IMG/VR virus record: IMGVR_UViG_3300031994_000020
From: a virus
Lineage: Duplodnaviria; Caudoviricetes
Reading direction: 5' to 3' (one strand)
Length of the DNA stretch: 64,000 nucleotides
In this document: positions 29,139-53,830 of the stretch, piece after piece
Numbering within the stretch: the first letter of the stretch is position 1
Layout: every line of letters starts with the position of its first letter
Notes under the pieces: generated by a model
Databases searched by the model: none
The model's input: only the letters and a program-made list of their open reading frames with translations
What the model was told of the DNA's origin: nothing
Made by a program: the position numbers and the translations under genes

Positions 29139-29171
29139 TAAATTAATGCATAATAAAAAGGAGATAAAAGG

Positions 29172-29348
29172 ATGGAAGAATTAAAACAACAATTACTTGA
29201 TATTTGTAACGCTAGCGGACTCCCGCTTGAGGCGATTTTATTCGTGACCAAGGATCTGTATCGCGATGTTGAGGACACACTCCGCCGCGTCAAAACAGGT
29301 CTTTTAGTAAAAGATAATAATGAAGAAGAAAAGGAGACAGAAGAATGA
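29172..29348 (+). CDS. Small hypothetical protein (58 aa)
   Basis: AAGGAG RBS, MEELKQQLLDICNASGLP..., ATGA overlap with the next gene. Confidence 0.6.
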   Translation: MEELKQQLLDICNASGLPLEAILFVTKDLYRDVEDTLRRVKTGLLVKDNNEEEKETEE

Positions 29349-29638
29349 CTATAACATTATTTTTAACACTCGTGACTATTTTGTCAATTATAAGTTCTGC
29401 AATAACCGAAGCAATAAAGAAAGTATTTGGTGATCAGCAGCCTACATTAGTAGACTTAGTTCTTTCTGTTGTTACCGGAATAGGAGGAGGGTTTGCTGCA
29501 TATATTCTTATGGGAATTAATTTTACTCCCACAACAATTATATGTTTAATACTTTTACCGCTTGCTATCTGGTTATGTTCTACCCTTGGTTACGATAAAG
29601 TAAAAGAAATTATAGAACAGATAGGTATGAAATCATAA
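29345..29638 (+). CDS. Holin-like membrane protein
   Basis: 97 aa with three hydrophobic segments and a GYDKVKE tail. Confidence 0.6.
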   Translation: MTITLFLTLVTILSIISSAITEAIKKVFGDQQPTLVDLVLSVVTGIGGGFAAYILMGINFTPTTIICLILLPLAIWLCSTLGYDKVKEIIEQIGMKS

Positions 29639-29645
29639 TTTAATT

Positions 29646-29676
29646 TGGGTTGGCTTTGTGCCAACCCATTTTTTTT
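29646..29676 (+). terminator. Rho-independent terminator
   Basis: TGGGTTGGC/GCCAACCCA plus T tract. Confidence 0.8.
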
Positions 29677-29755
29677 GGTCTAAAGTCTTTTATTCTCTTT
29701 GCTTAAAAATTATATATATAGAATAAGGAAATCCACTTTTAAGGAGGATGAAAGG

Positions 29756-30250
29756 ATGTTAGATTTATTAGCGAGTTTTTCTGTTTCGCAGATACTCTCT
29801 TTTTCTATATTAGGAGTGCTTGCTTTAAAAGGTTTTTTAGATATAATAGATTTTTTTAAAGGTAAGTATCAAGAAAAATTTAATAGTGATTATAAGAAGC
29901 TTAAAAATCAAGAGGACATTGATGAACAGCTTCAATTGGCAAAAGATAACCATGAAGAAATATTAAAAATATGCAAAGCTTTTGATGATAAACTAGATAC
30001 CGTTGTTGGCTCAGTTGATGAATTAAAAAGCATTGTTGATGAATTAACTCAATCTGATATGCACGATATAAAACAATATATAGTTCGTGAATATCATTAT
30101 TTTGCAGAAGAAAGAAAATGGATAGATGATTATAGTTTGGATTGTATTTTAATTAGATACAATGATTATAAGAAAGAAGGCGGAAATTCTTATATAGATA
30201 CGCTAGTAGAAGAATTAAAAAAATTACCTAAATGTCCGCCTAAAAATTGA
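29756..30250 (+). CDS. Holin-associated membrane protein (N-terminal TM, coiled coil)
   Basis: AAGGAGG RBS; C-terminal Y..Y..EGGNSYI...LP motif common in Firmicutes phage lysis regions. Confidence 0.5.
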   Translation: MLDLLASFSVSQILSFSILGVLALKGFLDIIDFFKGKYQEKFNSDYKKLKNQEDIDEQLQLAKDNHEEILKICKAFDDKLDTVVGSVDELKSIVDELTQSDMHDIKQYIVREYHYFAEERKWIDDYSLDCILIRYNDYKKEGGNSYIDTLVEELKKLPKCPPKN

Positions 30251-30279
30251 TTAATTTGAGATAAAAGGAGGGCTTTGAA

Positions 30280-32988
30280 ATGGCGTCAAATGTGTTATAT
30301 CCTCCGATTCTTGATAGTTATATGCCGGCCTTCCGCGCCTCTGATGGAGAATGTAGAATATATTTTTCTTTATCAAAATATAACTCTCAATCGGATTTTA
30401 AAAACCTTCATGTTTCTATTGTTAAACAAAAGAATAATGCAAGAGTTGTGAATAATAAAAAGAATGATGGTGGAGAAGGAAGATATAGAAGTACTGGTAT
30501 TATTTTAAATGTAAATTATAATCGAGATTATTCCCAAAGTAATCTATATTATTTTACTCTTAAAAATGATGATTTATTATCTGGTTTTGAAGTAGGTGAA
30601 ATTTATAAGGTACAAGTAAGATTATCTGGTGCAACTTATAATGGAGCGCAAACAACAGAAGGTCAGTCATCTTAGTTAAATAAAAATGCTTCTTTATTTT
30701 CAGAGTAGTCTACTGTTTGTATTATAAAAGCAATAGGTGATATGAATGTTAAAGTTGGCATTTTAAATAATGGAAATCCTATTAATAATGAAAGTAATTC
30801 TACTATTGAAACTGCTACATTATCTTATAGTACGTTAGATATTTTTGGGAGTGTTAAATTTGTAAAAGGGGGATTAAAAGCAGAAGATAATGAAATATTA
30901 TATATGTATAATATTAAATTATTTGATGTTTTAGAAAATAAATATGTAGAAGAAAGCGGCAAACAATATGCTGGTGAAGTGCTAAATATAAATGAATTTA
31001 GGTATATTTTTAAAACAGAATTAAAAGATACCAAAGAATATAGATTAGATTTTTATTTTACTACTAATAATTATTATGAGTATTCTTGTAGTTATAATTT
31101 TGTTGTTGAATTAGACACAGCAGAAAAATGTAGTATAGAAATCAAAACAGTTGAAAGTGATAATCTTAATATTTTAGATTCTACAATTTCATTAGAACAG
31201 GAAGAGGGGAGAATAGGTTTAAAACTTGTTGGAGAGAATCCGGTATCTACAAATATATGTATTAGACGTTCTGACTCTAAAAGTAATTTTTCTATTTAGG
31301 AAGATATAAAAATATTTCCTATTATATCAACAATTCCTAGTAGCATACCTATAATATAGGATTATACTATTGAAAGTGGAGTATTTTATAAATATGGTGT
31401 TCAAACAATAAATGAAAGTAATGAAAGAAGCGAATTAAATATTAATACTATTCCTGCTATGAGAGATTTTGAATACTCTTATCTTTTAGGAGAAGATAAT
31501 AAGCAGTTAAAGTTAAAATATAATAATATAATGAATAGTTATAAAATACAACTTATGGAAAGTAAAATAGATCCTATAGGAGGCGCATATCCTATTATTA
31601 CTCGTAATGCAGCATTAAATTATAGGATCTTTCCTATTGTTGGTACTATTTCATTTTCAATGGATGAAAATCATTTGTTCTGTGATAGATCTATTCTTTA
31701 TGAAAATGGAGGCGAAGATTTATAGATTAAGCCAAGAAAATTTAAGCCTACGGGAGATGATCAGCATAGTGAAAATACAGATATTGACTCTCCTAAATTT
31801 TCAGAAGAATATGAAAATAAACCAACATATCAAGGTAGCGTTACAAAAGATATTCAAGAACAATATGATTATATATATGAAAGAGCTTTTAGAGAAAAAG
31901 TTTTAGAGTTTTTACATGATGGTAAACCTAAATTATTTAAATCTCCAACAGAAGGAAATATAATAGTTAGATTAACAGATATTAATTGTACTCCTAACAA
32001 AACATTAGATAGAATGATTTATGATTTTACATCTAATGGCAATGAAATTGCAGAAGCTACTTTAGAAAATTATATTAAATATAATTTTTTAACAATAGGA
32101 GAAATTAATACTAATTTAAGTAAAGAAGAAGTTAAAATAGGTCAAGTTTCTGCTACTTTTGAAATGGGGAAAAATATTCTTCGAAGCATTTATGATAAAT
32201 ATGATGGCCATGGAGAAAATATCGGTGGTCAATTAAGAACTTTATTAAAAGTGTATAATGTAAGAATAACAATTGAAGATATTCCATTAAGGTATAATAA
32301 TTTAATAGGTAATAAAATTCTTTTAAATGGAGAGTCTGAAATAGCTATTTTAGCTCCTCAAAGAATATTTGATTTAGATTCAAGAATATTTTTTGATAGT
32401 GATGATTGTAGTGTTTTGGAAGGAAATACAGGAATTTCTTTTATAGATGGAGAAGATGATAGACCAGAAGGTACAATAGGGACTGTGAAAGCAGTTATTG
32501 ACTTTCTTTATGAGTTAGAGGAAAAGCCTTAGACAGGAAAGAAAATCTTATCTAAAAAGAGTAAAAAAGGAATGGGGCAGTTATTTGGGCATTATTCTTC
32601 AGGATATTCTATTTCAGGAGAAATTTCTAGAAGATATTATTTTGAATCGGATAATATGTTTAGAAGATTAAATGCTATACACTCTATTGAAATTCAAGGT
32701 TCTCCGGGGTTGGTTTTTTCTATTAAAGATGACAAAGATCCAAGTGGTCTTGAACCAGAACATTATTGGCATGAAATAAATGATACTGGAATATTGGTTT
32801 TTTATGAAATTGAAGATATTAAAGAAATAAAATTTTATGGAATTAGAAATAAACTAACAGGGGCAGTTGATACTATAAAAGAAGGTACTACTGAGCCTGT
32901 TTCTGCAGATATGTGTATTACATATTAGTATAATTCTGTAAGCGGTAGATATGATACTTCATCAAGAGAAAAAGGAGAAAGTGAATGA
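30280..32988 (+). CDS. Baseplate/distal-tail-like protein (902 aa; multiple TAG)
   Basis: 5 fragments in one frame; FSE[TAG]STVC, GKPKLFKSPTEGN; ends in ATGA overlap with 32985. Confidence 0.7.
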
Positions 32989-35105
32989 ATAATTTAAGCT
33001 ACTTAAAAGATAAAGATTTTTTAAGGAAGCTGGATAATGATAATAATAAGTTTTATTGGGTTAAGATAGAAGTTCTAGATGCGGAAGAGCGTACTATCAG
33101 TGCGATTCAAGGTAAAGTTCAAAGCGGATCATCAATCAATATTGATGGTAACTCTTCTGTAAGAAGAACTTGTAATATATCTTTTATAGCAGAAGAGGCT
33201 GAAAACGATTTAACTAATGTAGATAATTTATTATCAGTAAATAAAAAAATAAGAATTATGGAAGGTATTGAGAATACTATAAATGAGAATTACGATCCCA
33301 TAATCTGGTTCCCGCAAGGGATATATGTAATTGTTCAGCCTAGTATAAATCATTCTTCTAATGGTTGTATAATTAATTTAAGTTGTAAAGATAAAATGTG
33401 TTTATTAAATGGAGAATGTGGAGGTAATTTACCTACCTCAATAACTTTTGATAGTTATGACCAAATTATTGGTGAGGTTGTATGTCAAGGACATCCCGCA
33501 AATGACTCTACAATAATTCCTAATAATTATACAATATATTATGATAAAACAAATAATATTTATTATTCTTAGACCAAAGAGTCTGGATAGAAAAAGGAAA
33601 AGAATGGTTCTGCTATAGGTACAAGAGTTTCAGTAAAACAAAGAATTTATGATATTATCCGGACTCTTGTTTGTAATTATGGTGGAGAGTCTTTAAGCAA
33701 AATTTTTATTAATGATGTTCCACTTGATTTAAAACAAATAGTAAGATAGACAGGTTCAGAACCTTTATATTATAAAACAGAAGGTAGTGTATATACTACA
33801 GACGAATCAAAGAAAATAAATGATGAATAGATTACTTTTGAATATGGTGATGATATTGGATATGTATATACTGATTTTACATATCCTGGTTCTCTTGTAT
33901 CTAGTATAGGAGAAAATGTTTGTAGTGTATTAGATAAAATAAAAGCTACTTTGGGTAATTATGAATATTTTTATGATACAGAAGGTAATTTTTATTTTCA
34001 ACAAATTAGAAATTATCTTAATAATTCTTATGATCCTGTAAATACATTTAGATTAGATAATCATGGGAAAATAAGAAAAGTAGAAACCACATCTAATGGA
34101 TTGTGTATTTTAGATAATTTAAATTATGAAGTTGATTTTCATAATGGAAATAAAACTGTTTATTCTTTTGTTGAAGGTAGTGGGTTAATTACTTCTTATA
34201 ATAATAATCCATCTTATACTAATTTAAAGAATGATTATCATATATAGGGTAAAACTAGTGATGGTTATGCCATTCATTATCATTTAGCTATAAAAGAGAA
34301 ACCTTTAGAAAGTGATTTTAAAACTTATAATGTTATATTTTTGAAAAATAATAAAGGAGAATCTGCGGGTATTAGATTAGCTAATGATGATGAGGCAGGA
34401 GCAATATCTTATAAACCATCAGATTAGCGAGCTGAATTATATTTAAGAGGTCTTACTAAATAGAAAAATCAAATTAGACCTGATGTATATGAACAAGAAC
34501 TTCTTGATTTATTTGATAGTATATATGATTTTCAAGTAGAACAAAAAGATAAAGATAATAATATAATATATGGTGCATTTAAAACTGATATGGCATATAA
34601 TCCAAATGCTTTAAAATATTTTTTTGATTACCTTGAACCTATTGATAAAATGGCGGATTGTTCTGTTGATTTAATAGGAACAAGAATACAGTCTTATCAA
34701 CAAGATAAAATAAGAAAATTATATAATACAGATATCCCTAATGTTATTATAATAGACATGGGAATGGATAGTAAATCAAGAACTGAGCTTTAGAATAGAT
34801 GCGATGCGGAAGGTCAACCTAGAGCCAATGTTACTTCAGAGATATATTCTAAAATAGCAATAGGTACAATAGGATATACCGCACAGGAGACAATGAGAGA
34901 CTTGCTTTATCAACATACTAATTATAATGAAAGTATTTCTATTCAAAGTATTCCTATATATTATTTAGATGTTAATAATAGAATTTCTGTTTATGATAAA
35001 AAGTCAGGTATTTATGGAGATTATATTATAAAATCTATTTCATTGCCTTTAAATGCAGAAGGTACTATGAGTATTTCTGCGATAAAGGCTTTAGATAGAA
35101 TATGA
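32985..35105 (+). CDS. Baseplate hub/tail protein (706 aa; multiple TAG)
   Basis: 4 fragments in frame; INIDGNSSVRRTCN, DKMCLLNG, YEYFYDTEGNFYFQ, KNDYHI[TAG]G, IPIYYLDVNNRI. Confidence 0.7.
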
Positions 35106-35127
35106 GAGATAAAGGAGGTAATTAAAA

Positions 35128-35991
35128 GTGAGTTTTTATTTAAAGCAATATTATAAAGAAGCAGAAGATGATGAAAATACTTATATGACATATATAGGTA
35201 ACACTGGAGTAGCAACAATAATACAAAGAGATCAGACTGAAGATCCTTATGGAGGATTATTCCCTAATCCTTGCGTAAGATTAACTGGAGAAACTTTTAG
35301 TACAGATCAAACATATTATTTTCATGGGAAAATATATAGATTAGCAAATCCTCAAGAATTTACTGTAAAATTAGCTAATTATGAAAATTATAGACATTCA
35401 AGTGTTTCTAACTATGCAAACCAATATCTTAGAATTTATAATATAAATCCTTTTAAAAGCACTGATAATATTAATGATAAATAGTATGATATTGAATTTA
35501 TTTTTACTCCTGTAGCAGATGGCTATGATACAATTGTTTTTGAATTAACAAGAAGTACTGAAGATTTAGATCCTAGCCAAACTAGAGTTCCTATTATTGG
35601 ATATGAGGAATTAAGTCTTATTAATAATTCAAAAGCAACCATAGTTGATTCAGCAGCTACTTCTATAGTTAAATTAGGAATTCAAGCACGCCCTAGTTTT
35701 ATAATATGTTTAAATGGAGAAGGAATTCGTGTTCCTTATAGTGGAATTTAGGAATTAAGAGAAGGAAGTGTTCCTATAGATTTTATTTCATTAGTAGCTC
35801 CCGCACAAGAAAAAGTAGATGCCACCACAGGAAAGTCAGCTATGGATTTATAGATGGAAGATGTAGAAAAAAAAGTTGAAGGTGTAGGTAGTAATTGCTT
35901 TTTTAATGTAAATGTAGGATTTTACCCTAAAACAAGACCTATGAGTGCTGTTGCTATTGATTATTTATATACAAATGAACAAAAACAATAA
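35128..35991 (+). CDS. Baseplate-region structural protein (3 TAG)
   Basis: AAGGAGG RBS and GTG start; reads through TAG to TAA 35989, just before the next RBS. Confidence 0.65.
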
Positions 35992-36011
35992 GGAAGTGGA
36001 GGTTAATAAAT

Positions 36012-37934
36012 ATGGAAAGTTTTTATGGCGGAAGACCTGGCGCTTCCTTTGTAATTGTTAAACAATATGATGGAATAAATATTCCAGATAAAAGTTTAAA
36101 TAAATATAAATATTTTGCAGTTGATGCAGATGAAGTACCTTATTCAAGAACAGTAGGTTCTGGGAATCATGAATTAATAGAAAGAACTGGAGAAAATTAT
36201 AATCTTGATGTATTATAGAAAGCGTTACCTCTAAATGGAGCTACAATAGAAGAAACTATAGATATAGCAGATCCAAGTCAAAGTTATCGAGTATCAGTTC
36301 CTTTAGAATATCAAGAAGGTATGGTTCAAGATTTTTCAAGAGGGGCTGAAACAACAGGTAAAGTTAATTATGGTGAATATGTTATAATTGACACTTTTGA
36401 TAAAAATAACCCGGACAATGGTAAAGTTTTCCGCAGAGGTATAAATACAGGAGATCTTGGCGGGGCAGAATATATTGGTCAAATAGTTGGTCCTCAAGGT
36501 GGAGTATCAGATATAGATTTAGTTCAATAGGATGATGTCCCTGAAGGCGCGGAAAGTGGATATTAGAGTGCATCTCAGGATAAACATAGTCTTATTCCAG
36601 GTTAGGATGGAACAAATTATAATGATAAAATTTATTATAAATATAAAGATTTTAAAGATAATAATGGTGTTATAAGTACTTTTAAAGTAGGATTTCAAAT
36701 CCCTTATTTAGTACATGAATTTACAGGTGCTATAAGAAGTCCTTATAACAATGGAGTTCCAATTGATGACACTTTTAATTTAATAGAAAAGATTGAAGAA
36801 GAAGAAGAGCATCCTTTTTATCAGGGCTTTAAAATTAATGTTCCTCAAGGTTTTAAAGGCGATACTCCAAGTAATTTTGAAATTTTCCCTACTGCTGTTA
36901 ATGAAGCTCCTTATTAGAATAATGTACAATTAAGCGGCCCTGCTTCTGGAATTATCACTGGACTTATAAAAATAGATACTTATTATGATACTAAAACAGA
37001 ATATTCATCTGCCGCAATTGTAGGTTCTCTTGAAGAAGGAAGTCCTATATTAGGTTATGTGTCATTAAATCAACCAGAAGATAATAAATATTTGTATGAA
37101 TATCATTTAGGATGTTTATTAACTAGATATGATGAACATGAAGCGGGAGATTCTAAATAGATTGATTTAGGACCTTATAGAGATATTGATAGCGTTAATA
37201 TAAGCGCGGCAGGTGTAATTACAGTTAACTACACATGCGGAAGCCCGCAGACGCTTGATACTGTTATTGAATATCCTATTTCATTAACTGTTGGACCTGA
37301 TGGTTCAATGACAACTTTATTTAATACTGGAAAATCTACTACTGTTACTAAATTAGTTAAATAGTTAACTAACATAACAATTGAAAATAGTAGTCCTGAA
37401 GGAGTAGGTAATGATTATTTTAAAGCCTATTATAATGATGGTAGCAGTCAATATATTCAAAAGGCAACTGAAAATTATCCTATAAATTTTATTGATAAAG
37501 CTGCTGTTAATAGTAGTAATGGTCAGTTATTAGTTCGTTATACAAATCCCGCAAGTCGTGGTACGGTGCAATATGAAAATTATAATGACTAGAAAGAAGT
37601 AGGATTAGTAAAGGGGGACCCAGGTGGAGTCAGAATAGCTAAACAAGCTTCTAGTTATAGAGAATTAATTGATCCTTTGACAGGTAAGGGAATCGCGCCT
37701 GAGAATTTTAGTACTCCTCCAGATTACAGTCGCGTTGGATGGTGTGCTACAGTTGAGAACCCTGGTTCAACAAATCCCGCACTTTATTGGTATGATTATA
37801 ATGATTCAACTTGGCGTATTCTTGCTTCGGTGGTTTCATCAACCGCAAATCCTGTAACAATTATAGGTTTTGATTATAACGCTTTGGCAGTTAATGGTGT
37901 TCAACTTATTGCTTCTCAAAGAAAATCTGTATAA
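36012..37934 (+). CDS. Baseplate/tail-fibre base protein (640 aa; multiple TAG)
   Basis: Fragments 36012, 36321 and 37677 are in frame; GQIVGPQG; terminator follows. Confidence 0.65.
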
Positions 37935-37940
37935 TAATTT

Positions 37941-37970
37941 TTGACCCATTCTTTTGAATGGGTCAATTTT
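37941..37970 (+). terminator. Terminator hairpin overlapping a late-promoter motif
   Basis: TTGACCCATTC-TTTT-GAATGGGTCAA plus TTTT. Confidence 0.75.
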
Positions 37971-38043
37971 CTTTTATTTAATATTAATAAAAATTATATT
38001 ATATGATAAGATATTTTGGAGAAAAAGGAGGTATAAAATGTGA

Positions 38044-38649
38044 ATGAAAAGTAATAATGTTATATCTCAATTAATTATAAAAGGAGATTCTGAACATAGT
38101 ATTGAAGATGCTGTGTATAATATAGGTCCTGAATCAAAATATATTAGAGGTTTGTATCGTTCTAATAATAATAATTTTGATGAATATTATTTATTAGGAA
38201 CTGATACTATATCAACTTATTAGACGGAAGAAAGAGAAATAGATGGTGTTCCTATTGTTGTTAATGTAGAAGAAATAAAATTTTGTAGAGAAAGTGATGC
38301 TAGTAATTATTATGTTTTAAAGAAAGAGAAGTAGATTGAAAAGAATAAAAATATTGAATTAGTATCAGATAATGACGTTTTAACTTTTCAATTTAATAAT
38401 GAAGATGATATGCAATATATATCAGAATCTCAATCTATTAAACAAATAAATAATGTTATAGATATTTATGTAGAAGATGAAGATATAAATATTATTGGCG
38501 ATGTATAGCATGAGAATTAGTTCCTTTCTTTTGTTGAAAATGAAGGGATAGTTATTCAAGTTCTTCAAAAAGAAATAATATCTTCTACTAGAAAAATAGA
38601 TGGAATAATAAAAACTTTTACTACAGAATCTATTTCAGATCCGAATTGA
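38044..38649 (+). CDS. Hypothetical fibre-associated protein, paralogue of 41210 (4 TAG; absent from ORF track)
   Basis: MKSNNVISQL..YNIGPESKY..SNNNNFDE resembles MTTNNVISQL..YYIGPELKY..SNNHNLEE. Confidence 0.75.
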
Positions 38650-38665
38650 GAGAAAGGAGTTAAAA

Positions 38666-41002
38666 ATGCCAGACATTGTAAAAAGAATTAGTCTTAAAAA
38701 TAATCAAGGCGATTACACTAATTATGATATTGGTGCGGATGCTAACAATGTTAGTCTTGTTGAACCAATCAATATTGGTGGCAATATATATAATGATGCA
38801 GAATCTGCATTAAATGCTTTAAATAATAATAACAGCGATGTTGTAATTAAAGATTTTATATCTAAAACCTAGACTGGTCTTACTAGCTTTGATGGTAAAT
38901 ATGTATGGACTGATGGAAATGATATTTATTATTCAAATAATTATCAGCAGTATAAATTAAATAAAAATACCGGTGAATGGACTGAAGTTACTTGGGGCGG
39001 TTTAGCAAGTAATATTCAATTAGATGGTCAATATATATGGTCAGATGGAGAAGATACCTATTATTCAAGAAGCCTTACGGGACATCAATATAAATTAAAT
39101 AAGACTTCTGGAGATTAGGAAACAGCTACTTAGCAAGGAAAATCATTATTCAATGGAATAAATGTATGGACAGATGGAAATCAATATTATCTTTCATATA
39201 ATTCAGATCAATATGTATTGGATAAAACAACAACTCCATATACTTGGGTTGCAGTTACTTAGTCTACACCCGATGGAACATTTGGTGGGAATGGCTATTT
39301 TACGTAGTCAGACGGAAATAATACTTATTATTCTAGTGATAATACTCAATATGTTTTAGATAAAATAAATCCTTATACATAGACACAAATGACATAGACT
39401 GGATTAACTTCCTTTATTGGTTCTAATGTTTGGACTTCTAATGAAGGAGATATTTATCTTTCTGAAGGAACTAAACAATATGTTTTAAATAAAGAAACTT
39501 ATAATTGGTCTCCCGTATCATGGTCTATTCAATTAGTTGATCAAACTAATTTTAAGGGAGAACATATTTAGACTGATGGAAGTGATGTTTATTTCTCTTA
39601 TGGTTCAGAACATTTTATTTTTGACAATAGAAAAATAACAGAAGCTGGTGTACCAAATGGATTAGCTACATTAGATTCAAATGGTAAATTAAATAATACA
39701 CAAATTCCTAGTGGAGCAATGGTTAAGGGTATTGATTATGTTACCGCTGGACAAAAAGCTAACACTACTTTAGGAAATGGAGCTACTGCGGAAGGTCAGA
39801 ATACTACAGCAAGCGGACCTTATTCTCATGCTGAAGGGCAGAATACTACAGCAAGTGGACCATTAGCTCATGCAGAAGGACAAAGCACTGTTGCAAAAGA
39901 AGTAAATGCTCATACAGAAGGTAATGGAACAACAGCTTCTAATGCAAATACTCATGCAGAAGGACTTTCAACAATTGCTTCTGGCCCTAATGCACATGCG
40001 GAAGGTAGTGGCACTGTTGCAAGAGAAGCAAATACACATGCTGAAGGTAATAGTACAACAGCTTCTAACGCAAATGCTCATGCAGAAGGATATTTAACAA
40101 TTGCTTCTAATGCAAATGCACATGCGGAAGGTAATGGTACAACAGCTGCTCATACAAATGCTCATGCAGAAGGTTTTAAAACTGTAACTGGTAATGCTAA
40201 TCAGCATGTAGGCGGAAGATGGAATATAGGTAGAAATAATACTTTATTTGAAATTGGTAATGGTACAGCAAATAATGCAAGATCAAATGCTTTTGAAGTA
40301 TATGAAGATGGAAATATATTTGTTGCAGGAAATGTTGCTAATAATAGGAAAGAAACATTTGTAACTAATAGAGGAATACTTAATTCTTCTTTTGTTATTT
40401 CAGATGATTTTAAAAATAATAGTATTTATTCTTATTTTAGTAATTCTACTGAAAATATAAATATATATATTAATGGTGCTAAATATTTTGGTATTAAAAC
40501 ATCAAATAATGTTTATTTATATACAGGACAAGTTAGTACTGGATATAATGGAATATATGTAAGAGTATTTAATGAAAGCACAGGATTATTAATACATCAA
40601 GGATATTATAATGATGCATCTTTAACTACCACTTTAGAATTAACAGGGAATATTAATTATACATTTTATTTCTATGATATGAATAATGCTCCTTGGGATG
40701 AACATATTATTTATAAAGAATATTGGTTTGGAAGTGGATCACAAGCTGCCGGTCCAGCTGTTGAATGTTCGACATTAGATTCGCATACTTCACTATATTA
40801 TGGAGTAGTAGATGTTGGTATTCCTAATTATCGTTTAGTATCTGCTAATCTTACATCTTCTTGGACACCTACTCCTGATAAAATAACGCCTACACTTTTA
40901 TTAAGAGATTGGGATAAGATTAGGATTTTTGTGGGAGCGAGTCCAGAAACTCTTACTATGGGGTTAAGATGTTTATATCTTAAACGTGGAAGCGAAACAT
41001 AA
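38666..41002 (+). CDS. Tail fibre/receptor-binding protein 1 (778 aa; 8 TAG)
   Basis: N-terminal YDIGADA anchor, six approx. 42-aa Trp repeats, 14-aa HAEG (YadA-head-like) repeats, FEIGNGT neck. Confidence 0.8.
38870..39625 (+). repeat. Six Trp-rich coding repeats (WxxxxW...W[TS]DG..YYS..QY.L.K)
   Basis: Visible on translation; Trp columns use TGG (9) or TAG (8). Confidence 0.85.
39785..40175 (+). repeat. 42-bp coding repeats (AHAEGxxTxAS)
   Basis: About 10 tandem 14-aa units; a related array lies at 46945-47250. Confidence 0.85.
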
Positions 41003-41081
41003 AAAATGAAATAGATCTATTTTTTATATTTAAAAAATTTTATCAAAAATTCAAGATAATAAAATTGTTTTTTAAAAAATT

Positions 41082-41121
41082 AAGGGGACTTAATCATTAG
41101 ATTAAGTCCCCTTTTCTTTTT
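41082..41121 (+). terminator. Rho-independent terminator
   Basis: AAGGGGACTTAATC/GATTAAGTCCCCTT plus T tract. Confidence 0.85.
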
Positions 41122-41209
41122 GGTCAATTATAGTAAATAATGCTTTTATCTTTTTAAAATATAATATTAAAGAAGATATTTTATTAAGAGTAAAAAGGAG
41201 GGACATTAA

Positions 41210-41773
41210 GTGACAACAAATAATGTTATTTCACAATTAAATATAAAAAGATCAAGTGATGGATACGATACTTATTATATTGGTCCAGAATTAAAATATG
41301 TTGGTAGCTTAGCTACATCTAATAATCATAATCTTGAAGAACAAATGATAATGGGAGTAGATAGACAAATTGTTTCTTATTATGATGAAGTAAATAAAGC
41401 GCAAATTGAAATAATAGATTTTCGTAGAAATAGCGATACAAAATATTATACTTTAGAAAAAATAAAGTATGATGGAGATTATGGTATGAGTGTTGCTTAT
41501 GTTCAAGGAAATGTATTAAATTTTAATACTTCTAATATATTTTGTTCACAAGATCATATTTTAGATCAAAATGAATATGATCCAAATATGATTTTTACAG
41601 ATAATAAATTTGATATAACATCAGACTCTATATTAGAAGTAGATACTCTTTATTATACAGATCCTGATGATACAAGCGTACCTGATGGAAAGAAAGCAAT
41701 ATCTATAAAAACAACAATGAGAATTACTAAAGGCGGTCATTCTATGATTGTTGAAACTGTTCAAGAGCCTTGA
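41210..41773 (+). CDS. Hypothetical fibre-associated protein, paralogue of 38044
   Basis: Intact ORF, AAGGAGG RBS, shared N-terminus. Confidence 0.7.
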   Translation: MTTNNVISQLNIKRSSDGYDTYYIGPELKYVGSLATSNNHNLEEQMIMGVDRQIVSYYDEVNKAQIEIIDFRRNSDTKYYTLEKIKYDGDYGMSVAYVQGNVLNFNTSNIFCSQDHILDQNEYDPNMIFTDNKFDITSDSILEVDTLYYTDPDDTSVPDGKKAISIKTTMRITKGGHSMIVETVQEP

Positions 41774-41802
41774 TAAAATAAGAGAAAAGGAGTGGTAAAA
41801 AG

Positions 41803-42078
41803 ATGCCAAATAAGATTATAAATCAAATTAATTTAAAAAATTCTGATGGACAATCATCTGAACTTTATGATATAGGTGCTAATGCTGTTAATGTTATGTA
41901 TGATAATGATACTAATATAAAAACAAAGATTGATAGTAAAGCAGATACACAAGCGGTAGGTCAATCTATTCAACAAATAAGAAATGTAATTCCATCTACC
42001 GCAACAAGTAGTAATCAATTAATAACAGCGAATGATTTAGATACTGCAATATATGATGTTCTTAATACCCCCGTTTAA
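41803..42078 (+). CDS. Short fibre anchor-only protein
   Basis: MPNKIINQINLKN..YDIGANA N-terminus shared with 38666 and 43791. Confidence 0.65.
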   Translation: MPNKIINQINLKNSDGQSSELYDIGANAVNVMYDNDTNIKTKIDSKADTQAVGQSIQQIRNVIPSTATSSNQLITANDLDTAIYDVLNTPV

Positions 42079-42096
42079 TAAAAGGAGGTAATAAAA

Positions 42097-42783
42097 ATGA
42101 GTTTAAAAAGTGTTTTCGTTGATATAGCAAATAGTATTAGAAGTAAAACTGGAACTTCTGAATTAATTAAGCCCGTAGATATAGCAGATGTAATAAATAA
42201 TAGTACTTTAGGCGGCGGTGAATTTGTAATTGCAGATAATGGAGCATTAAAATTTAATTCTAGTGTATTTAATATGCCTGTGAATATTTCTGATAATGTC
42301 ACTGATATGCGTAATTGTTTTTATGGTTGTAGTAATTTTAATCAACCTATTAACATACCTAATAACATTGCTTATATGGGTGGCTGTTTTGCAGGTTGTG
42401 ACAACTTTAATCAACCTATTAATATATCTAATAATGTTACTAATATGTATGAATGTTTTGCAGGTTGTACTAATTTTAATCAACCTGTTAATATACCTAA
42501 TAACATTGCTCATATAGAGCGTTGTTTTTTGGGTTGTAGCAATTTTGGGCAGAATATTTTTTTAAACAAAACTAATTTAACCCCTATGTTTTATAGATCT
42601 ATGCTTGGATCTTGTAATAATTCAAAAACAAAACGAATTTTCATTGGGGCCGGAGTTTCTCCTGGTAATCTTATAGCTTATACTAATGAATTTTCAATAG
42701 TTGGAAATACAATCACATAGTCATCAAATTCAAATTGCACATATAATACAGCATATAATATATATATTTATAATAATAGATAA
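42097..42783 (+). CDS. BspA/DUF285-like LRR protein 1 (TAG at 42718)
   Basis: 22-aa repeats FNQPINIPNNxxxMxxCFxGCxN; reads through to TAA 42781, adjacent to the next RBS. Confidence 0.8.
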
Positions 42784-42797
42784 AGGAGGTACAATGA

Positions 42798-43766
42798 ATG
42801 GCGATTTTAGAAGATGTTTTTATAAATATAGCTAATAGTATTAGAAGTAAAACTGGAACCTCTGAATCAATTAAACCTATAGATATGCCAAATATAATAA
42901 ATAATATAAGTGCTGGCGGTATTTATAATATAACTACAGGAAATGCAGCAACATCATTTAATAAAGAAACATTTAATTATCCTGTTAATATTTCTAATAA
43001 TGTTACTGATATGAGTAATTGTTTTAATAATTGTACTATTTTTAATCAGCCTATTAATATACCTAATAGTGTTACTAATATGTGTAATTGTTTTATACAT
43101 TGCTATGAATTTAATCAACCTGTTAATATACCTAATAGTGTTACTGATATGAATAATTGTTTTAGCTATTGTGGTTTTGGTTTTAATCAACCTATTAATA
43201 TACCTAATAGCGTTACTAATATGGAAAGTTGCTTTCATTTTTGTAATAATTTTAATCAACCTATTAATATACCTAATAATATTACTAGTGTGTATGATCT
43301 TTTTTATAATTGCTATAGTTTCAATCAATATGTAAATATACCTAATAGTGTTACTAATATGTGTGATTGTTTTAGTGGTTGTTAGAATTTTAATCAACCT
43401 GTTAATATACCTAATAATGTAGCAAGCCTTTATTATTGTTTTAGAAATTGTAAAAATTTTAATCAGCCTATTAATATTCCTAATAGTATAACAAATATGG
43501 AAGGTTGTTTTGAGGCTTGTCAAAATTTTGAACAAGATATTATTTTAAAGAAAACTGATTTGCTTCCTATTATGTATGCAAATATATTTAAAAATTGTAA
43601 TAATTCAAAAAGAAAACAAATTTTTGTTGGTATAGGAGGGTCTCCTGGAAATCTTATAGCTTATACTAATAGATATTCAATAGTTGGAGATACAATAACA
43701 TAGACAACAAATTCAAATTGTGCTTATAATACAGCTTTCAATATATATATTTATAACAATAAATAA
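42798..43766 (+). CDS. BspA/DUF285-like LRR protein 2 (TAG at 43383, 43701)
   Basis: Paralogue with more 66-bp repeats; same N- and C-terminal caps. Confidence 0.8.
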
Positions 43767-43790
43767 CAAATAAAGGAGGTATAAAATAAA

Positions 43791-46700
43791 ATGCCATTAA
43801 TCAAACAAATTAACTTAGACAACGATGGTGTTGTAACCTCATATGATATTGCGGCAGATGCTACTAACGTAGAATTACAAAGCCCTGTCACAATAGATGA
43901 ACAACAGTATGAAACTGCGGGAGGCGCGTTAGAGGCGGCCGCCGCAGCTATAAATAACATAGAAATAGATATAGCTGATCTTGGTATAAGCAAGATAGGT
44001 ATATCTCAGATTGGTATGGCTAATGGTGTTGCAAGTCTTGATGCTAATGGTAAGATACCAGTTTCTCAGTTGCCTAGTACCGGTTCGGATGTATATCGTT
44101 ACAATATAGTTACCAAATCAACGGGCGGTTCGGATGCAGCGATAACTATAAAGAAATATCTTAATGAAGAGTTGGTATCATCAACTGACTACCCTTATAA
44201 GACATTTGATCATACCCATGTGATTATTGATAGTTTATTTGACATGATTTATGCCGAAGATGGTCAGGCTAAGTATACAATGACTTTACTTGAGAACTCT
44301 ACCGATCATAATGCCGGATATTCAAGAAGATGGCAATACAATGAAACTGTAGACTTCTCAGAAACATTCATAATGTCAGATGAAGATATTTCGTTTATCG
44401 CTCCTCCATTCTACGCAAATGTATCATATGTTGTTGGCGATAAAGTAACACGTAATGGTAACTTTTACAGATGTAAAATGCCTCATACCGGTGCATGGGA
44501 TATTGCTGATTTCGATAAGATATCTGTGGATGAGTTATTTGACGAGGTGTATGATTCTCTTGATGATATCGCAATTGACATAACGCAACTTGGTATAAGT
44601 AAGGTAGGCATTTCCCAGGTTGGTATCGCTGGAGGTGTTGCTAGTCTTGGTAATGACGGTAAGGTACCGAACAGTCAGTTACCTGCTATACCTACGAAAG
44701 TTTCAGAACTTCAAAATGATAGTGGATTTATTACAGGATATACAGAAACCGATCCTACAGTTCCCGCCTGGGCGAAAGCTTCTACTAAGCCTAGCTATAC
44801 TGCAAGTGAGGTCGGCGCAGTTGCAACTACAGCTGTCGGTAGCGCTAATGGAGTCGCTGAACTAGATAGCACAGGTAAGGTACCTGCCGCACAGCTTCCT
44901 TCTTTTGTTGATGAAATTATAGAAGGTTATCTGAATCCCGCAGATGGTAAGTTTTATGAAGAATCTACTTATGAAACAGAAATACTTGGGGAAGAAGGTA
45001 AGATATATACTGAATTAGCAACTAATAAGACTTATAGATAGTCTGGTTCCGCATTCGTTGAGGTAAGTGAGAGTCTTGCTCTTGGTGAAACATCATCTAC
45101 CGCATATGCGGGCAATAAAGGTAAAGCAAATGCAGATGCGATTGCCGCAATTAAAGATGGAACTAACATTGACAGTTTTAGTGATGTTGAGACTGCTCTT
45201 AGTAATAAGCAGCCTAAGACTCTTGATACTCCTATAGTAGTAGATGAAACAAGTTATACTACTGTAGAATCTGCTATGAATGCTATTAATAATAAAGCTG
45301 TGATAGTAGATGATGAAATGTCTGATACAAGTATTAATCCTGTTCAGAATAAGGTTATTACAGAAGCTTTAAATGGCAAAGAAGATGTGATGGAATATAC
45401 CTCTGATACTAATGTGCTTGAAGTAAATTTACAGCATAGTGCTTTAGTATCAGGCATGGCGATTGACATACAGCCCATACAGGACTTACACGGATATGAT
45501 AAACCGTGGGTTGGTGGCGCTTCAAAACAGCTTCTCCCCTTAACGGTAGCAGGATTAAAAGCATTAAACACCACAGGAACATGGTCTGGAAATAATTATT
45601 CCATTCATGGTGGAGTGATAACCCTTTTAACAGATACGGATGAAAACGTAATAGGGATAAATGCAAACGGGACATTTACCACAAGAGTAGACTTTTCTTT
45701 AGGTAGCGTGTCTCTTAATGGAAGTTATGTTATAAGTGGTTCAACAAATGGTGGTTTGGATAAGTGGATTATATGGACAAGAAGCCACGGCACAGTATTA
45801 TCCGAAATGTCCATGGATGGTGCGGGATATTATAGTGAGACATCAGGAAGTGCCAAAGAATCAGTATTAACTATTTATCCCGGAACGATTAGCAATCAAA
45901 AGTTCTATCCAATGCTTTGCTTGCAGTCTGCTGAAAATCCGACTGTATTTGAACCGTATACAAATGAATGTGCGATAAGTGGAACAAGCAAATTAGATAT
46001 CGTTTGCGCACAGACTTCCCAAATGCTGATACCTACAAATAATGAAAGCGTATATGGTAACGGTTTAACAATGTATTATTTGGGTAAAGGTAAATACAGA
46101 GTAAAAGGAATGCCGACAGCAGGAGCAGGCTTATATAAGAGAATTCAAAGCTTTTATATTTATGGTGGTGATAATTGTCGAGTAAAATTTAGAAATAATA
46201 TAGCAAATAGTGGCATTAGTTTGTCATTTATGAGCGGCTCATCTGTTTTAGATACCTTTTCATTAAATACAGTAAATAGAGAAGGAGGATACAATGCACT
46301 TAAAAATAAATATTGTGATGCTTTTAGAGTAAATATCACTAATACGGGAACATACCTTGATTTTACATTTCAAGTGGAGTTTTATGATTCCCAATTATAC
46401 AATGCCTACACCATCGACCTCAATGGCACACGCTACGGAGGAACACTTGACGTAAAGACGGGCGTGCTGACGGTAGATAAGAAGTTCGCCACCAAAAGAT
46501 GGGGAACATATACACGTACAGATACATTAGGTAAGATGGTTCGTAGACAGATAGGTGCGTTATCCGATGCAAAATCAAACACCACTAATATTATATCAGA
46601 ATTAGCTCCGATGGTGCGTGATTGGGATTCGGACACTTGCCATTTCTATTTGGCAACACAGAATGTAACAATGTTCCTTCCTGTTGGTACGTCAGATGAC

Positions 46701-48695
46701 ACCGAAGTAAATGTGGTATATGAATTAGATACTCCTCTCACCGTTCAGCTTACCCCTACACAGGTAGAATTACTTAAAGGCTATAACTACATTTCAGTTA
46801 ATGGAAATACAGTGATAAGTAAGTTAAATGCTTTTTCGGATGATGCTGTTAAGTATTTAGAGCCGATTATTGATGGGAAGATGACTAAAGGTGTCGACTA
46901 TGTAACAGCCGGACAGAAAGATGGAACAACTCTCGGAACATATGCTACGACAGAAGGACATAATTCCTCTGCTCCTGGTTATGCTGCTCATACAGAGGGA
47001 AGTAACTCAGCAGCAAGCGCATCATGTGCTCATGCAGAAGGATCTGGTACAAGAGCATCTGGTCAGTATTCGCATGCGGAAGGAGAGCAAACAGTAGCAA
47101 GTGGAACATGTGCTCATGCAGAGGGACATGGAACTTCTGCTGGACGTTAGTCACATGCTGAAGGGTACGAAACTAATGCGGAAGAATATTCCCATTCAGA
47201 AGGTCGTGGTACTAATGCTGGATATACTTATTCTCATGCTGAAGGGTATTATACCCAAACAAATTGTGATTATCAACATGTTCAAGGTAAATATAATGAA
47301 GGTAAGCGAGAAACGGCATTTGAAATAGGTAATGGTACGTCAGAAAATGCTCGTTCTAATGCTTTTGAGGTTGATTGGAGTGGCAATGTGACCGCGGCCG
47401 GAGATATTACTGATGGTAATGGTAATAAACTTGCCGATAAGTTAAATTCCGTAAATCCAGCAGTAACTGGACAATTAACTATTGATGGAGTGAGTATTCA
47501 AAAATATGCAACTAAAGACTCGATGGCGTATCAGACGACAATATACGCTTCCCAAGAAGGTGAAACAACATTTAGAGCCGATTATACTGATTGTATTGTT
47601 GATTTTGCTGTAAACGGTTCCATTGTTGATACCGGAATTATACCTTATACTTATAATGGAATAAGTGTCAGTGGTAGTAGTATGACATATGACGGTTCAC
47701 AGGATAAAGACGTAATTGTAAAGATTTACTATGTTGATTCTGTTGGAGTAAAAGTAGACGGTGATGTTATTGATAGTTCTGGAAATGTATTAAGAAATAA
47801 ACTTAATTCTTCAGATATAAGCGCGTAGGCGAAAGCAAGTACGAAGCCAACGTATACAGCATCCGAAGTGGGGGCAATAGCTGTTGATGCAGGCTTTGTA
47901 CATACAGATGATATAACATACGACCCTGATATAAAAACAGTAACGTGTACAAAGAGTGTAAATGGTTGGACGTCACAGATATACTCAAAATCAGGATATG
48001 TTGATAATGTATTTGTAACATTTAAGCCAGATTCAAGAAATGGGTATCGTATGGTTGGGCTTGATTCTAATCCATCTGAATCAGTAGACTTCACTTCTAT
48101 TGATTTTTGCTTCTTTTGTCAAGGTGGTGGAAGCTTATACATATTTGAAAGCGGGACACAGATAACACCACCTGCTGGGCATACTACCTATAGTGCTGGG
48201 GATGAATTACGCATAGAGTATAGTGATGGATTTGTTAGATACTATCACAACGGGGAGCTTGTCAGAAGCGTAGCAAGAGCTATTGGCAATCCTTTATATC
48301 TCGATTCATCATTCTACAATAGCGGAAGTGTGTATGATGTTGAGTTTGGAGCAGGACTCGGAAATACAAATAAGCCGACAGTTGTATATGAAGTGGGACA
48401 ATTAAGCAATAGTCAGACTTTGGTAGATAGTTTTAAAGAGTTTGCAAGAGCACATAGTGCAGAGCCTACAATAAGTTTTGAGGGCATAGGCTATATAAGC
48501 GGCGGCACTCAATCTGATTTACCAGCGGTTTCTACTGTATGGACTTATGCAACAGTTAAATTTATAGTCCGATTTGCCGAAACTTTAGGCAGAGAAGATG
48601 GTACAATTATATTATATGGCTATGATTCTAACAAAATAGCTATGAAAGCAATCGCCAATGGTACTGCTCGAAGTGGATGGTTAATACTTGAATAA
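43791..48695 (+). CDS. Tail fibre/receptor-binding protein 2 (1634 aa; TAG at 45039, 47148, 47826)
   Basis: 4 fragments in one frame; GVASLDxxGKVP repeats, NKTYR[TAG]SGS, HAEG repeats, mosaic C-terminal domains. Confidence 0.8.
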
Positions 48696-48734
48696 AAGAA
48701 GTATTTTTAAGAAAAGTAAGGAGGAAATAAACAA

Positions 48735-49004
48735 ATGGCAAAGTATGCAGTAGTAGAATGCAACAACAGTAATTTCAGCATAGTATCTGAATGGACGGAT
48801 AACAAAGACGGGGCTATTTCTGATTGACACAGGGAATGTAGGACTTTAATGAACGCTCCCGACGTGAAAAGAGCAGTGGTTAAGGTAGTTGACGAGGATT
48901 TTAACTTGGTAGACGGCAAGCAGGAGCTTATTTTTCATCCCGATGAAATACCACAGTCCGAAATGCCTGCGGAGGATGATGATGCGGAAAATGAACCTGC
49001 ATAA
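48735..49004 (+). pseudogene. Small fibre-associated gene with in-frame TGA at 48825
   Basis: AAGGAGG RBS; MAKYAVVE..ISD[TGA]HRECRTLMNAPDV.. continues as plausible protein to TAA 49002. Confidence 0.55.
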
Positions 49005-49158
49005 ATAATCTTGTCAGCTGTGTAATTAGTGGAACATTTGATGGTACTGTTACTAACTATTCGCCTATAACTGCGGGAGTATCAGCAACAATAACATTCA
49101 CATAAGTAAAGTAACATAAAACGAACATTTTTAACGGAAAAATAAGGAGGATAAAAAC

Positions 49159-49242
49159 ATGAAATATGCAATAACATGGACAACTAATACAGATTGTGTG
49201 TATAATACAGCTTTTAATATATATATTTATAATAATAAATAA
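49159..49242 (+). pseudogene. 27-aa chimeric relic ORF (MKYA start fused to LRR C-terminal cap)
   Basis: AAGGAGG RBS; MKYAITWTTNTDCVYNTAFNIYIYNNK nearly matches the ends of both LRR genes. Confidence 0.7.
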
Positions 49243-49376
49243 GAAAGAGTACTCGCAGATACTGTAAAGAAATGCAGCTGCAAGGGCTTATTTAAAAATT
49301 TTTTAATACGTTCGGACAAACTAAATAAATCTATTTTAATGTAATTTCATATATATTATCAAGGAGGATAATATAT

Positions 49377-49895
49377 ATGATTACATTAGCAATAGATGCT
49401 TCAACGAAGTCAACAGGTTAGAGCATATTTGAAAATCAAGAATTAAAAGATTATGGTTGTATTACGGCTTCAAGTTCAAATCTCTACAATAGAATAGATA
49501 AAATGATAGAAGAAATAGATAAGATACTTCAAAAATATAATATAGAGCAAGTTGTAATTGAAGAAGTATTACCAGAAGATGTTAAAGGTAATAATTCTGT
49601 TTTCAAAGCACTTATGTATCTTCAAGCATTTATCGCACATAAATTAAATCAATATGATATTATTCCAAAATTTATAGTATCATCAGAGTGGCGAAAAAAA
49701 TGCGGGATTCATACTGGGCCTGGGATTCGTAGAGAGAGTCTCAAACCAAAAGACATTGCCTTTGTAAAATCTCAATTTGGTATTAATACAAATGATGATG
49801 TTGCAGATGCAATATGTATAGGATTTGCTGCGGTAGGTGGTACTATCAAAGAAAACCAAGTGATAAAAACAGATGATGGATTTGAGTTTGCATGA
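49377..49895 (+). CDS. RuvC-like Holliday junction resolvase (TAG at 49419)
   Basis: LAIDASTKSTG[TAG]SIF, VVIEE, SEWRK, DDVADAICIG. The first catalytic Asp lies upstream of the TAG. Confidence 0.85.
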
Positions 49896-50110
49896 TGCAC
49901 TTGGGCAAACTTGATAAAATTGCTTACCGCAATTTTTAAATAATATTACAAGGGAATAAATTACTTTCTCATAGGTTCTCTGATAACCTAGTTTTTACTC
50001 CCTAGTAAATAAAATACTTTCATAATCTATGTGAAAGTAATATCCTTTTAAATTCTTAATTGATATATCTATCAACAATTCTTTTTAAATTCCACAAGGA
50101 GAGAAGTACA

Positions 50111-50560
50111 ATGGGTAACTTTAACAATTTTCAACGTAATAGTAATTTTGCACCTTTTTATACCCCATCTTCAGTAGTGAGTACTACACCAACGAATAAT
50201 ATTATTTAGGTTCAAGGAATAGAAGGGGCTAAAGCATGGCAACTTGCACCTAGTAGTATTGCAATTCTTTTAGATAGTGAATCAGATGGCAAAATGTATA
50301 TTAAGGTAAGCGATAATATAGGTATGTCTACATTAAGAATTTTTAATTATGTGGAAGAAATACCTAATAACAATGTAAGTACAAGTGTAACCGTAAACAA
50401 TGATTTGGATTTAACTCAATATGTGAGAAAAGACGAATTAAGCAAATTGATAAAGGAGTTAATAGGAAATGAGCAATCTTTACCAACAACTGATGCGGCA
50501 GGCCCCGCCCCTTCAACCACAAGCCCAGGCCCCGCAAAAGTTACAATCCTCAAAAAGTAA
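50111..50560 (+). CDS. Conserved Firmicutes phage hypothetical protein (TAG at 50207)
   Basis: NII[TAG]VQGIEGAKAW..LLDSE..MYIK; AAGGAG RBS. Confidence 0.7.
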
Positions 50561-50753
50561 TTTTTCATTAAAAAATCTTATGAATATCTCCGACCCTTCC
50601 TCGTTCATTCAGAACATGGTCGCGAGCAATCCCCAATTACAAAATGTAATGCAATTATTTCAATCAAGCAAACTTTCCCCAAAAGAATTTTTTTATCAAT
50701 ATGCTAAGCAGAATGGAGTAGATCCAGATCAGTTTCTAAATTCTTTAAAATAA
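50469..50753 (+). CDS. Gln/Pro-rich hypothetical protein
   Basis: AAGGAG upstream; NPQLQNVM..PKEFFYQYAKQNGVDP; overlaps the previous gene by 92 nt. Confidence 0.65.
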   Translation: MSNLYQQLMRQAPPLQPQAQAPQKLQSSKSNFSLKNLMNISDPSSFIQNMVASNPQLQNVMQLFQSSKLSPKEFFYQYAKQNGVDPDQFLNSLK

Positions 50754-50766
50754 GGAGGACATAATA

Positions 50767-51468: not shown

Positions 51469-51512
51469 TTTAAATCTTTAAACGTCCATTTGACGAGGTA
51501 ATTTTTCACTTC

Positions 51513-51541
51513 GAGGGCGTTTTCTACACGCCCTCTTTTTC
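51513..51541 (+). terminator. Rho-independent terminator
   Basis: GAGGGCGT/ACGCCCTC plus T tract. Confidence 0.7.
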
Positions 51542-51563
51542 TTAATTTAAGGAGGACAATCAA

Positions 51564-52720: not shown

Positions 52721-52758
52721 AAGGACGTAGATTATTTATCTACGTCCTTTTTCTTTTT
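52721..52758. terminator. Terminator between the convergent late and early arms
   Basis: AAGGACGTAGAT/ATCTACGTCCTT stem with A- and T-rich flanks. Confidence 0.8.
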
Positions 52759-53779: not shown

Positions 53780-53800
53780 CCTTTTATCTCCTTAAAAGAA

Positions 53801-53830
53801 AAGCCCTGATATTTTTATATCAGGGCTATT
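53801..53830 (-). terminator. Terminator after the dUTPase gene
   Basis: AGCCCTGAT/ATCAGGGCT stem with T tract on the - strand. Confidence 0.65.

Follow-up and report, generated by a model that had tools for sequence, protein, structure and literature searches.

TAG probably encodes tryptophan in a tailed phage that carries a two-arm tRNA(CUA)

What does TAG encode in a phage tail-fibre-like gene that is interrupted by it eight times in frame? The gene lies in a 64,000-nt stretch (hereafter the window) of the IMG/VR virus record IMGVR_UViG_3300031994_000020 (Duplodnaviria; Caudoviricetes). The window is the reverse strand of bases 55212–119211 of a linear 146,105-bp phage record with 33% GC content and 93% completeness. 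Sequence comparison led us to the view that TAG very probably encodes Trp in this phage, with TAA and TGA still serving as stops, and that the decoder is most likely the phage's own tRNA(CUA), which has a second, spare arm of anticodon type. Coordinates are collected in Table 1.

An earlier note, made from the letters of the window and a list of its open reading frames (ORFs), had described six tandem repeats with Trp columns in this gene; its repeat strings and all its counts match our alignment. We split residues 59–321 of the product into six repeats and aligned them using MAFFT with TAG masked as X, obtaining the consensus TWxxKTWxGLTxFxGxxIWTDGxNIYYSxxxxQYVLDK. The three Trp columns of the six repeats read F W X W X W / X W X X X W / W W W X W X. 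These 18 cells comprise eight TAG, nine TGG and one Phe, and neither TAG nor TGG occurs elsewhere in the repeats, so that no TAG falls outside the columns to which the note had assigned them. Confinement of all eight TAGs to the Trp columns has a hypergeometric P of 2.3e-14 (254 non-Trp cells, 9 in Trp columns). With three Trp per blade, TAG would supply 8 of the 17 Trp positions of the domain. Gln is written differently, again as had been claimed: the conserved Gln of the QY[KV]L motif is CAG or CAA in five repeats and CAT (His) in the sixth, and all 13 codons for Gln within the repeats are CAA or CAG (TAG, 0/13).

The suggestion of a propeller-like fold also gained support, at the level of prediction. 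An AlphaFold2 model of the repeat domain, built on a 54-sequence alignment, had a mean predicted local distance difference test score (pLDDT) of 93.1 and a predicted template modelling score (pTM) of 0.89, and contained six blades with at most four strands called per blade. Foldseek matched residues 55–335 to Kelch, Pizza6 and SAKe6 propellers at probability 1.0 and template modelling (TM) scores of 0.5–0.68. The domain is thus predicted to be a six-bladed beta-propeller, similar in fold to Kelch-like and designer six-bladed propellers (e.g. PDB 9d8p, 6f0t, 7ona). It differs from these known propellers in having three Trp per blade, in forming the N-terminal part of a tail-fibre-like protein, and in belonging to no Pfam family; the Pfam search found no family for the repeat domain, nor for most of the late proteins. 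The gene as a whole matched PHROG 25468, and its tblastn matches were to proteins annotated as tail spike or tail fibre.

Homologues from outside this phage give the same answer. The X-masked query reached three standard-code loci (L115–L117), the best of which (L115) had TGG at seven of the eight TAG sites and a gap at the other. In the 54-sequence standard-code alignment all eight TAG sites (8/8) fell in columns where Trp is invariant or makes up at least 90% of residues. A large protein collection yielded 414 homologues of the repeat domain, in none of which did a Pfam family cover the repeats. When the 120 listed homologues of these 414 were re-aligned to the X-masked query, TAG cells were W in 692 and Q in 5 of 919. 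At window TGG sites the same homologues had W in 1008 of about 1050 cells, and at window Gln sites they had chiefly Q, N and S.

Downstream of the propeller in the same protein (window 39650–40400) are about a dozen 13-residue NxHAEGxxTxASG repeats with no TAG, which also occur in Flavobacterium and Verrucomicrobia phage proteins that carry tail spike or tail fibre annotations. The C-terminal 220 residues of the product have five TGG and no TAG.

The pattern extends over the whole window. Translation by table 11 fragmented the plus-strand genes, while reading TAG as sense gave 36 contiguous genes, among them those for terminase, portal, a 2797-residue tape measure and tail proteins. The window has 128 in-frame TAGs spread over 25 of its 47 genes, and no gene ends in TAG, all of them ending in TAA or TGA. 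With many in-frame TAGs in intact genes and TAG unused as a terminator, this is a stop-codon-recoded phage. Codon composition bears on the amino acid. TGG alone makes up 0.53% of codons in the late (plus-strand) genes and 1.23% in the early (minus-strand) genes; adding TAG brings these to 1.27% and 1.32%. Since late TAG plus TGG matches the early genes, TAG fills a Trp deficit in the late genes. Late-gene Gln was already normal without TAG (3.1–3.9%) and would become 4.65% with TAG counted as Gln.

We found 80 related loci through the portal gene and tallied their codons at window TAG sites. In about 1190 cells there were 723 TGG, 102 TGA, 89 TTT, 46 TAT, 25 TAG and 4 Gln codons. The 102 TGA stem from TGA-recoded relatives, where TGA is Trp and stands opposite window TGG or TAG. 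As a reciprocal check, the close TAG-recoded contigs L005, L011 and L012 had TAG opposite window TGG or TAG. Three complete standard-code relatives (G006–G008) cover 100 window TAG sites, with W 101, Y 30 (12%), F 21, L 10 and Q 2 in about 240 cells. Their profile at window TGG sites was W 136, Y 19 and F 13, and at window Gln codons Q 668, E 137 and K 129. Because the substitution spectrum at TAG is like that at TGG, the TAG profile matches Trp rather than Gln, Tyr or Ser. Neither of the codes usual for such phages describes the window: for code 4 (TGA = Trp) there is no in-frame TGA, and TGA ends 16 of 48 tabulated genes; for code 15 (TAG = Gln), Gln made up at most 1% of aligned TAG cells and Trp was the top residue. 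What we found instead is a TGG-like spectrum together with a filled Trp deficit. The note's proposal that TAG is a synonym of TGG is therefore supported by the repeats, by outside homologues and by tallies over the whole window. The portal-gene clade contains three kinds of genome, standard-code, TGA-recoded and TAG-recoded.

Among the TGA-recoded members, several of L049–L082, L122–L126, and G001, G002 and G005 share 58–63% portal identity and read TGA as Trp. The strongest TAG bias in the window was in a 1810-residue tail protein (23706–29138), with 30 TAG and 5 TGG, or 86% TAG among Trp codons. This protein had no tblastn match among GenBank phages; its TAG sites were covered via IMG/VR relatives.

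Which tRNA could read these codons? ARAGORN found no tRNA in the window and 23 tRNAs plus a transfer-messenger RNA (tmRNA) in the whole contig, including a phage-encoded suppressor tRNA that matches the recoded codon. This tRNA(CUA) scored 54.2 bits against the Rfam tRNA model; it has CUA as the triplet in its anticodon loop, and its variable region, 25 nt in all, holds an insertion of 22 nt. Its body is of Trp type with discriminator G73. The insertion is a hairpin, GAGGU[GUCCAAA]GCCUC, with a 5-bp stem and a 7-nt loop that bears the Trp anticodon CCA; the loop equals the Trp anticodon loop CUCCAAA at six of seven positions. We define a Trp-type two-arm tRNA by a Trp-like body, G73 and a 5-bp/7-nt xUCCAAA hairpin between the anticodon and T arms, and tRNA(CUA) has all of these. 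ARAGORN assigns the label Pyl to this tRNA and SeC to its UCA homologues. Folded by itself in RNAfold, the tRNA retained the spare hairpin and gave no cloverleaf (z = -1.7), a test that is uninformative for tRNAs. Genes for tryptophanyl-tRNA synthetase (TrpRS, PF00579) and release factor (PF00472) were not found in the phage genome, whose record is 93% complete. A Jade-like code change module was ruled out on this basis, and with no TrpRS gene found a host enzyme must charge tRNA(CUA).

The two-arm design recurs in a family of suppressor tRNAs. TGA=Trp relatives G002 and G005 have orthologous 96–97-nt tRNA(UCA) genes with spare arms AGGGU[CUCCAAA]ACCCU and CGGGU[CUCCAAA]ACCCG. A pattern scan of IMG/VR, in which the CCA loop motif was imposed by the pattern, found the Trp-type design in 36 contigs, with anticodon UCA in all. 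Across their 29 distinct arms, 138 of 145 stem-pair cells are paired and compensatory changes are many; the mean in shuffled controls was 87.5 ± 4.7 paired cells, and 0 of 10000 shuffles attained 138. Because these five pairs covary and pairs six and seven are at chance level, the spare hairpin has exactly the dimensions of an anticodon arm. An unbiased scan for long-arm UCA tRNAs found clean CCA-loop hairpins in 29 of 62 distinct variable regions, and several more with TCCAAA. Only one other CUA tRNA with a CCA arm appeared in the metagenome scan, on the related 144.6-kb contig L169 (arm ACGGG[CUCCAAA]CCCGU), so the combination of CUA with a Trp arm was found only in this phage and L169. Leaving out the anticodon loop and spare arm, the core of tRNA(CUA) is 90% identical to the L169 suppressor, 85–87% to UCA suppressors and 80% to the phage's own tRNA-Trp. 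The L169 CUA tRNA is 97% identical to the G002 UCA tRNA. The CUA suppressor thus looks like a UCA form with two anticodon substitutions, judging by these identities. A new tandem duplication of the neighbouring tRNA-Trp in this genome was rejected as the source of the suppressor, which is nearer those of other genomes (85–90%) than its neighbour (80%).

Several observations surround this family. The core of tRNA-Trp(CCA) is 80% identical to the neighbouring suppressor and only 63–65% identical to the tRNA-Trp genes of related phages, which hints at gene conversion between the two neighbours or at derivation of one from the other. Where phage tRNA(UCA) genes combine a Trp-like anticodon stem with a long variable region, about half had no CCA loop (L208–L250); these have 6–7-bp stems and loops such as TTAGGAG or TGACGAG, and some are tRNA-Sec-like. 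L169, the second candidate genome for a TAG=Trp code, has a further tRNA of 71 nt whose anticodon is UCA and whose body is unrelated (5829–5899, minus strand), and its few available ORFs have no in-frame TGA. A two-arm tRNA(UCA) on L140, a contig of L067 (= G010, 135,791 bp, complete), likewise comes with no in-frame TGA in 21 kb aligned. The L140 suppressor may have been acquired ahead of recoding. One standard-code relative of the phage Agate has a suppressor before recoding according to Borges et al. (bioRxiv 10.1101/2021.08.26.457843).

A scan for CUA tRNAs without constraint on the variable region allowed the spare arm to be compared with the amino acid decoded. Besides that of this phage, 10 of 11 distinct long-arm CUA tRNAs can form a hairpin with a 7-nt loop that has U at position 2 followed by CUG or UUG, which are Gln anticodons. 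By the same tally method, TAG sites of the L095-type lineage gave Q 121 and W 0; in the L104-type lineage TAG stood opposite Q, K, E or N, and the TAG of its relatives opposite Q. The three combinations are CUA with a Gln arm, where TAG is Gln; UCA with a Trp arm, where TGA is Trp; and CUA with a Trp arm, where TAG would be Trp. Glutaminyl-tRNA synthetase (GlnRS), or glutamyl-tRNA synthetase with the GatCAB amidotransferase (GluRS/GatCAB), and TrpRS recognise the anticodon, and C35 is a major TrpRS determinant. A match between arm and amino acid is what would be expected if the spare arm gives anticodon identity elements to these enzymes. The match is correlative, and from its presence in the three classes we infer that the spare arm is needed for charging by TrpRS. 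Such an arm may explain why tRNA(CUA) is not a plain inserter of Gln like the E. coli suppressor su+7.

Spare loops in the tRNA(CUA) genes of unrelated large phages (L087–L114) include CUCUGAA, CUUUGAA, CUUUGAC, UUCUGUU and GUCUGCU. The short stems that flank them covary, and the forms in L090, L104 and L111 are a poor fit to the 7-nt register.

We lean, by a modest margin over even odds, towards a modular view of these suppressor tRNAs, in which the first arm picks the codon and the spare arm picks the amino acid by showing a cognate anticodon to the host synthetase. Here the decoding anticodon would have changed from UCA to CUA in the Trp-arm tRNA of the TGA=Trp relatives, and the proteome would have followed, giving a TAG=Trp code not known from any described organism or virus. 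The synthetase could read the spare loop directly, or the tRNA could switch between two cloverleaves. For the infection cycle we envisage the following. Read in this way, TAG makes up about 59% of the Trp codons of the late virion genes, with very few TAGs in genes on the opposite strand, so that the late proteins could not be completed before an amber-reading Trp-tRNA is present. That decoder would most likely be the 93-nt tRNA(CUA). The anticodon CUA alters position 35, a major TrpRS identity base; host TrpRS would charge the tRNA with Trp, the spare CCA arm replacing the identity element lost from the anticodon. Because the tRNA genes are co-oriented with TAG-free genes, they are probably expressed early.

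Other meanings of TAG have to be set against this. Gln (code 15) is the usual amber reassignment in phages, used by crAss-like and Lak phages and by the distantly related phAss-1, and su+7 shows that a Trp-bodied CUA tRNA can take Gln. We nonetheless hold it quite improbable here, given that Gln occurred at TAG sites 4 times in about 1190 cells, 2 times in about 240 and 5 times in 919, whereas the same method returned Q 121 and W 0 for genuine TAG=Gln phages; it would also push late Gln to 4.65% against 3.1–3.9% and leave the Trp deficit at 0.53%. The su+7 precedent lends itself equally to ambiguous decoding, in which some tRNA(CUA) molecules carry Trp and others Gln or another amino acid, and the proteins tolerate the mixture. 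That is unlikely, because TAGs occupy invariant core Trp positions in the propeller blades and in terminase and portal motifs, where Gln would damage the protein, and because a spare CCA arm that is conserved and covaries points to Trp identity being under selection. A length of 93 nt, a 25-nt variable region of class II type and G73 could suggest Ser, Leu or Tyr, since SerRS (seryl-tRNA synthetase) recognises long arms. Yet Ser and Leu are rare at TAG sites, Tyr at 12% has the same share as at window TGG sites, and a 5-bp arm with a conserved 7-nt xUCCAAA loop is unlike Ser, Leu or Sec arms; other long-arm UCA tRNAs, some of them tRNA-Sec-like, have different loops. Protein tallies that give Trp and an anticodon-like arm with a CCA loop speak against class II, tRNA-Sec and tRNA-Pyl identities alike, and we find this group of readings hardly credible.

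It is just as hard to credit TAG as a true stop, with pseudogenes, assembly errors or rare programmed readthrough behind the fragmentation of late genes under table 11. The 125 TAGs of the 36 late genes come with no frameshift and no internal TAA or TGA, the fragments are collinear with full-length homologues, L005, L011 and L012, which are independent contigs, have TAG at the same sites, and a dedicated tRNA(CUA) is encoded. A-to-I editing of mRNA, turning UAG into UIG to be read as UGG, would likewise place Trp at TAG sites. It is the remotest of these ideas: about 128 sites would have to be edited with no shared hairpin context, a deaminase was neither sought nor seen, and the tRNA(CUA) makes editing superfluous.

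Some points weigh against decoding of TAG as Trp by this tRNA. What the comparisons identify is the amino acid that selection would expect at TAG. E. coli tRNA-Trp with a CUA anticodon is charged mainly with Gln, and some insertion of Gln, or a mixture, may take place at TAG here too. About a quarter of TAG sites align to residues other than Trp, for the most part to Tyr or Phe where the column is variable. In ORF 9321–9782, two TAGs of the 5' part face gaps or unrelated codons in relatives; this ORF probably starts later than called (a GTG at 9471 is listed under table 11), and the two TAGs are perhaps noncoding. The phage is a metagenome-derived linear contig, 93% complete, so a factor could have been missed, and a role of the spare arm in TrpRS recognition is our hypothesis.

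How does this code compare with those described in other phages? It shares with TGA-to-Trp (code 4) phages, such as the ~127-kb Agate of Firmicutes (bioRxiv 10.1101/2021.08.26.457843), a stop-to-Trp change in late structural and lysis genes, a Trp-type suppressor and low GC content. TGA=Trp members of the present clade have an orthologous two-arm tRNA with anticodon UCA. The differences are that here TAG is reassigned, TGA is still a stop, and the decoding anticodon is CUA. With TAG-to-Gln (code 15) phages of the crAss-like, Lak and phAss-1 kinds (PMC10607447, PMC9523058) it shares amber as sense in late genes, a tRNA(CUA) and early genes largely free of TAG; the tape-measure N-terminus is common to phAss-1 and this phage at 31% identity. 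From code 15 phages it differs in the amino acid, the same tally giving Q for real code-15 phages and W here. In the phAss-1 paper, table 15 was used to annotate a distant relative. The tRNA resembles E. coli su+7 (supU) in having a Trp tRNA body with C35 changed to U, reading UAG; it adds the spare CCA hairpin, and the phage proteins demand Trp. The su+7 tRNA is reportedly mischarged mainly with Gln.

To our knowledge, reports of stop recoding in phages are confined to TAG-to-Gln, TGA-to-Trp and TGA-to-Gly changes, and we know of no NCBI table in which TAG is Trp. The codes modelled by Mgcod and Pharokka-gv are limited to 4, 15 and a TAA variant. Borges et al. (bioRxiv 10.1101/2021.08.26.457843) found only TAG-to-Gln and TGA-to-Trp in phages that differ from the host code, and remarked that suppressor tRNAs may be overlooked owing to non-canonical structure. 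A literature search that left most subscription journals outside its reach found neither a TAG-to-Trp phage code nor a tRNA with two anticodon arms. The combination of CUA with a Trp arm, and the TAG-to-Trp code that would result, thus appear to be new here.

If true, a TAG-to-Trp code is an added natural genetic code. Annotation by table 15 would then place Gln at about 130 core Trp positions, harming homology search and structure prediction. The case bears on how TrpRS, an anticodon-dependent enzyme, accepts a tRNA with a changed anticodon, to which the spare CCA arm is a testable answer; the arm is also a possible design principle for engineered suppressor tRNAs. With standard, TGA=Trp and TAG=Trp members side by side, the phage clade is a good system for studying code switching.

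Table 1. Mapped features of the window and of the phage tRNA locus. Positions are those of the window unless a contig label is given.
Feature	Location	Strand	Remarks
Tail-fibre-like gene	38666..41002	+	778 codons; 8 in-frame TAGs read as sense; TAA end
Six tandem ~44-residue repeats	38840..39628	+	residues 59–321; three Trp columns per blade; predicted six-bladed beta-propeller
In-frame TAG, residue 69	38870..38872	+	Trp column, at least 90% W in 54-sequence alignment
In-frame TAG, residue 151	39116..39118	+	Trp column
In-frame TAG, residue 156	39131..39133	+	Trp column
In-frame TAG, residue 199	39260..39262	+	Trp column
In-frame TAG, residue 214	39305..39307	+	Trp column, invariant in 54-sequence alignment
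In-frame TAG, residue 239	39380..39382	+	Trp column
In-frame TAG, residue 244	39395..39397	+	Trp column
In-frame TAG, residue 302	39569..39571	+	Trp column
TGG codons within repeats (starts)	38906, 38978, 38993, 39038, 39167, 39245, 39431, 39506, 39521	+	
Late (packaging, head, tail) gene arm	17..52540	+	36 genes; 125 in-frame TAG vs 88 TGG; ends TAA or TGA
Replication-type genes	52757..63449	-	11 genes; 3 TAG vs 42 TGG; readable under either code
tRNA-Trp(CCA)	G000:C1:10182-10253 (L207:83-154)		
tRNA(CUA), 93 nt	G000:C1:10262-10354		8 nt downstream of tRNA-Trp(CCA); outside window; only CUA tRNA in genome

Three plus-strand ORFs of the window overlap one another, at 8870–9487, 9321–9782 and 9740–10726. 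Elsewhere on the contig, ARAGORN called a tRNA with a four-base anticodon (aaag) at G000:C1:7792-7864 and a phage-encoded tmRNA at G000:C1:18416-18760 with the tag AKKIVSFPTKVALAA; L169 has a related tmRNA, at 82% identity.

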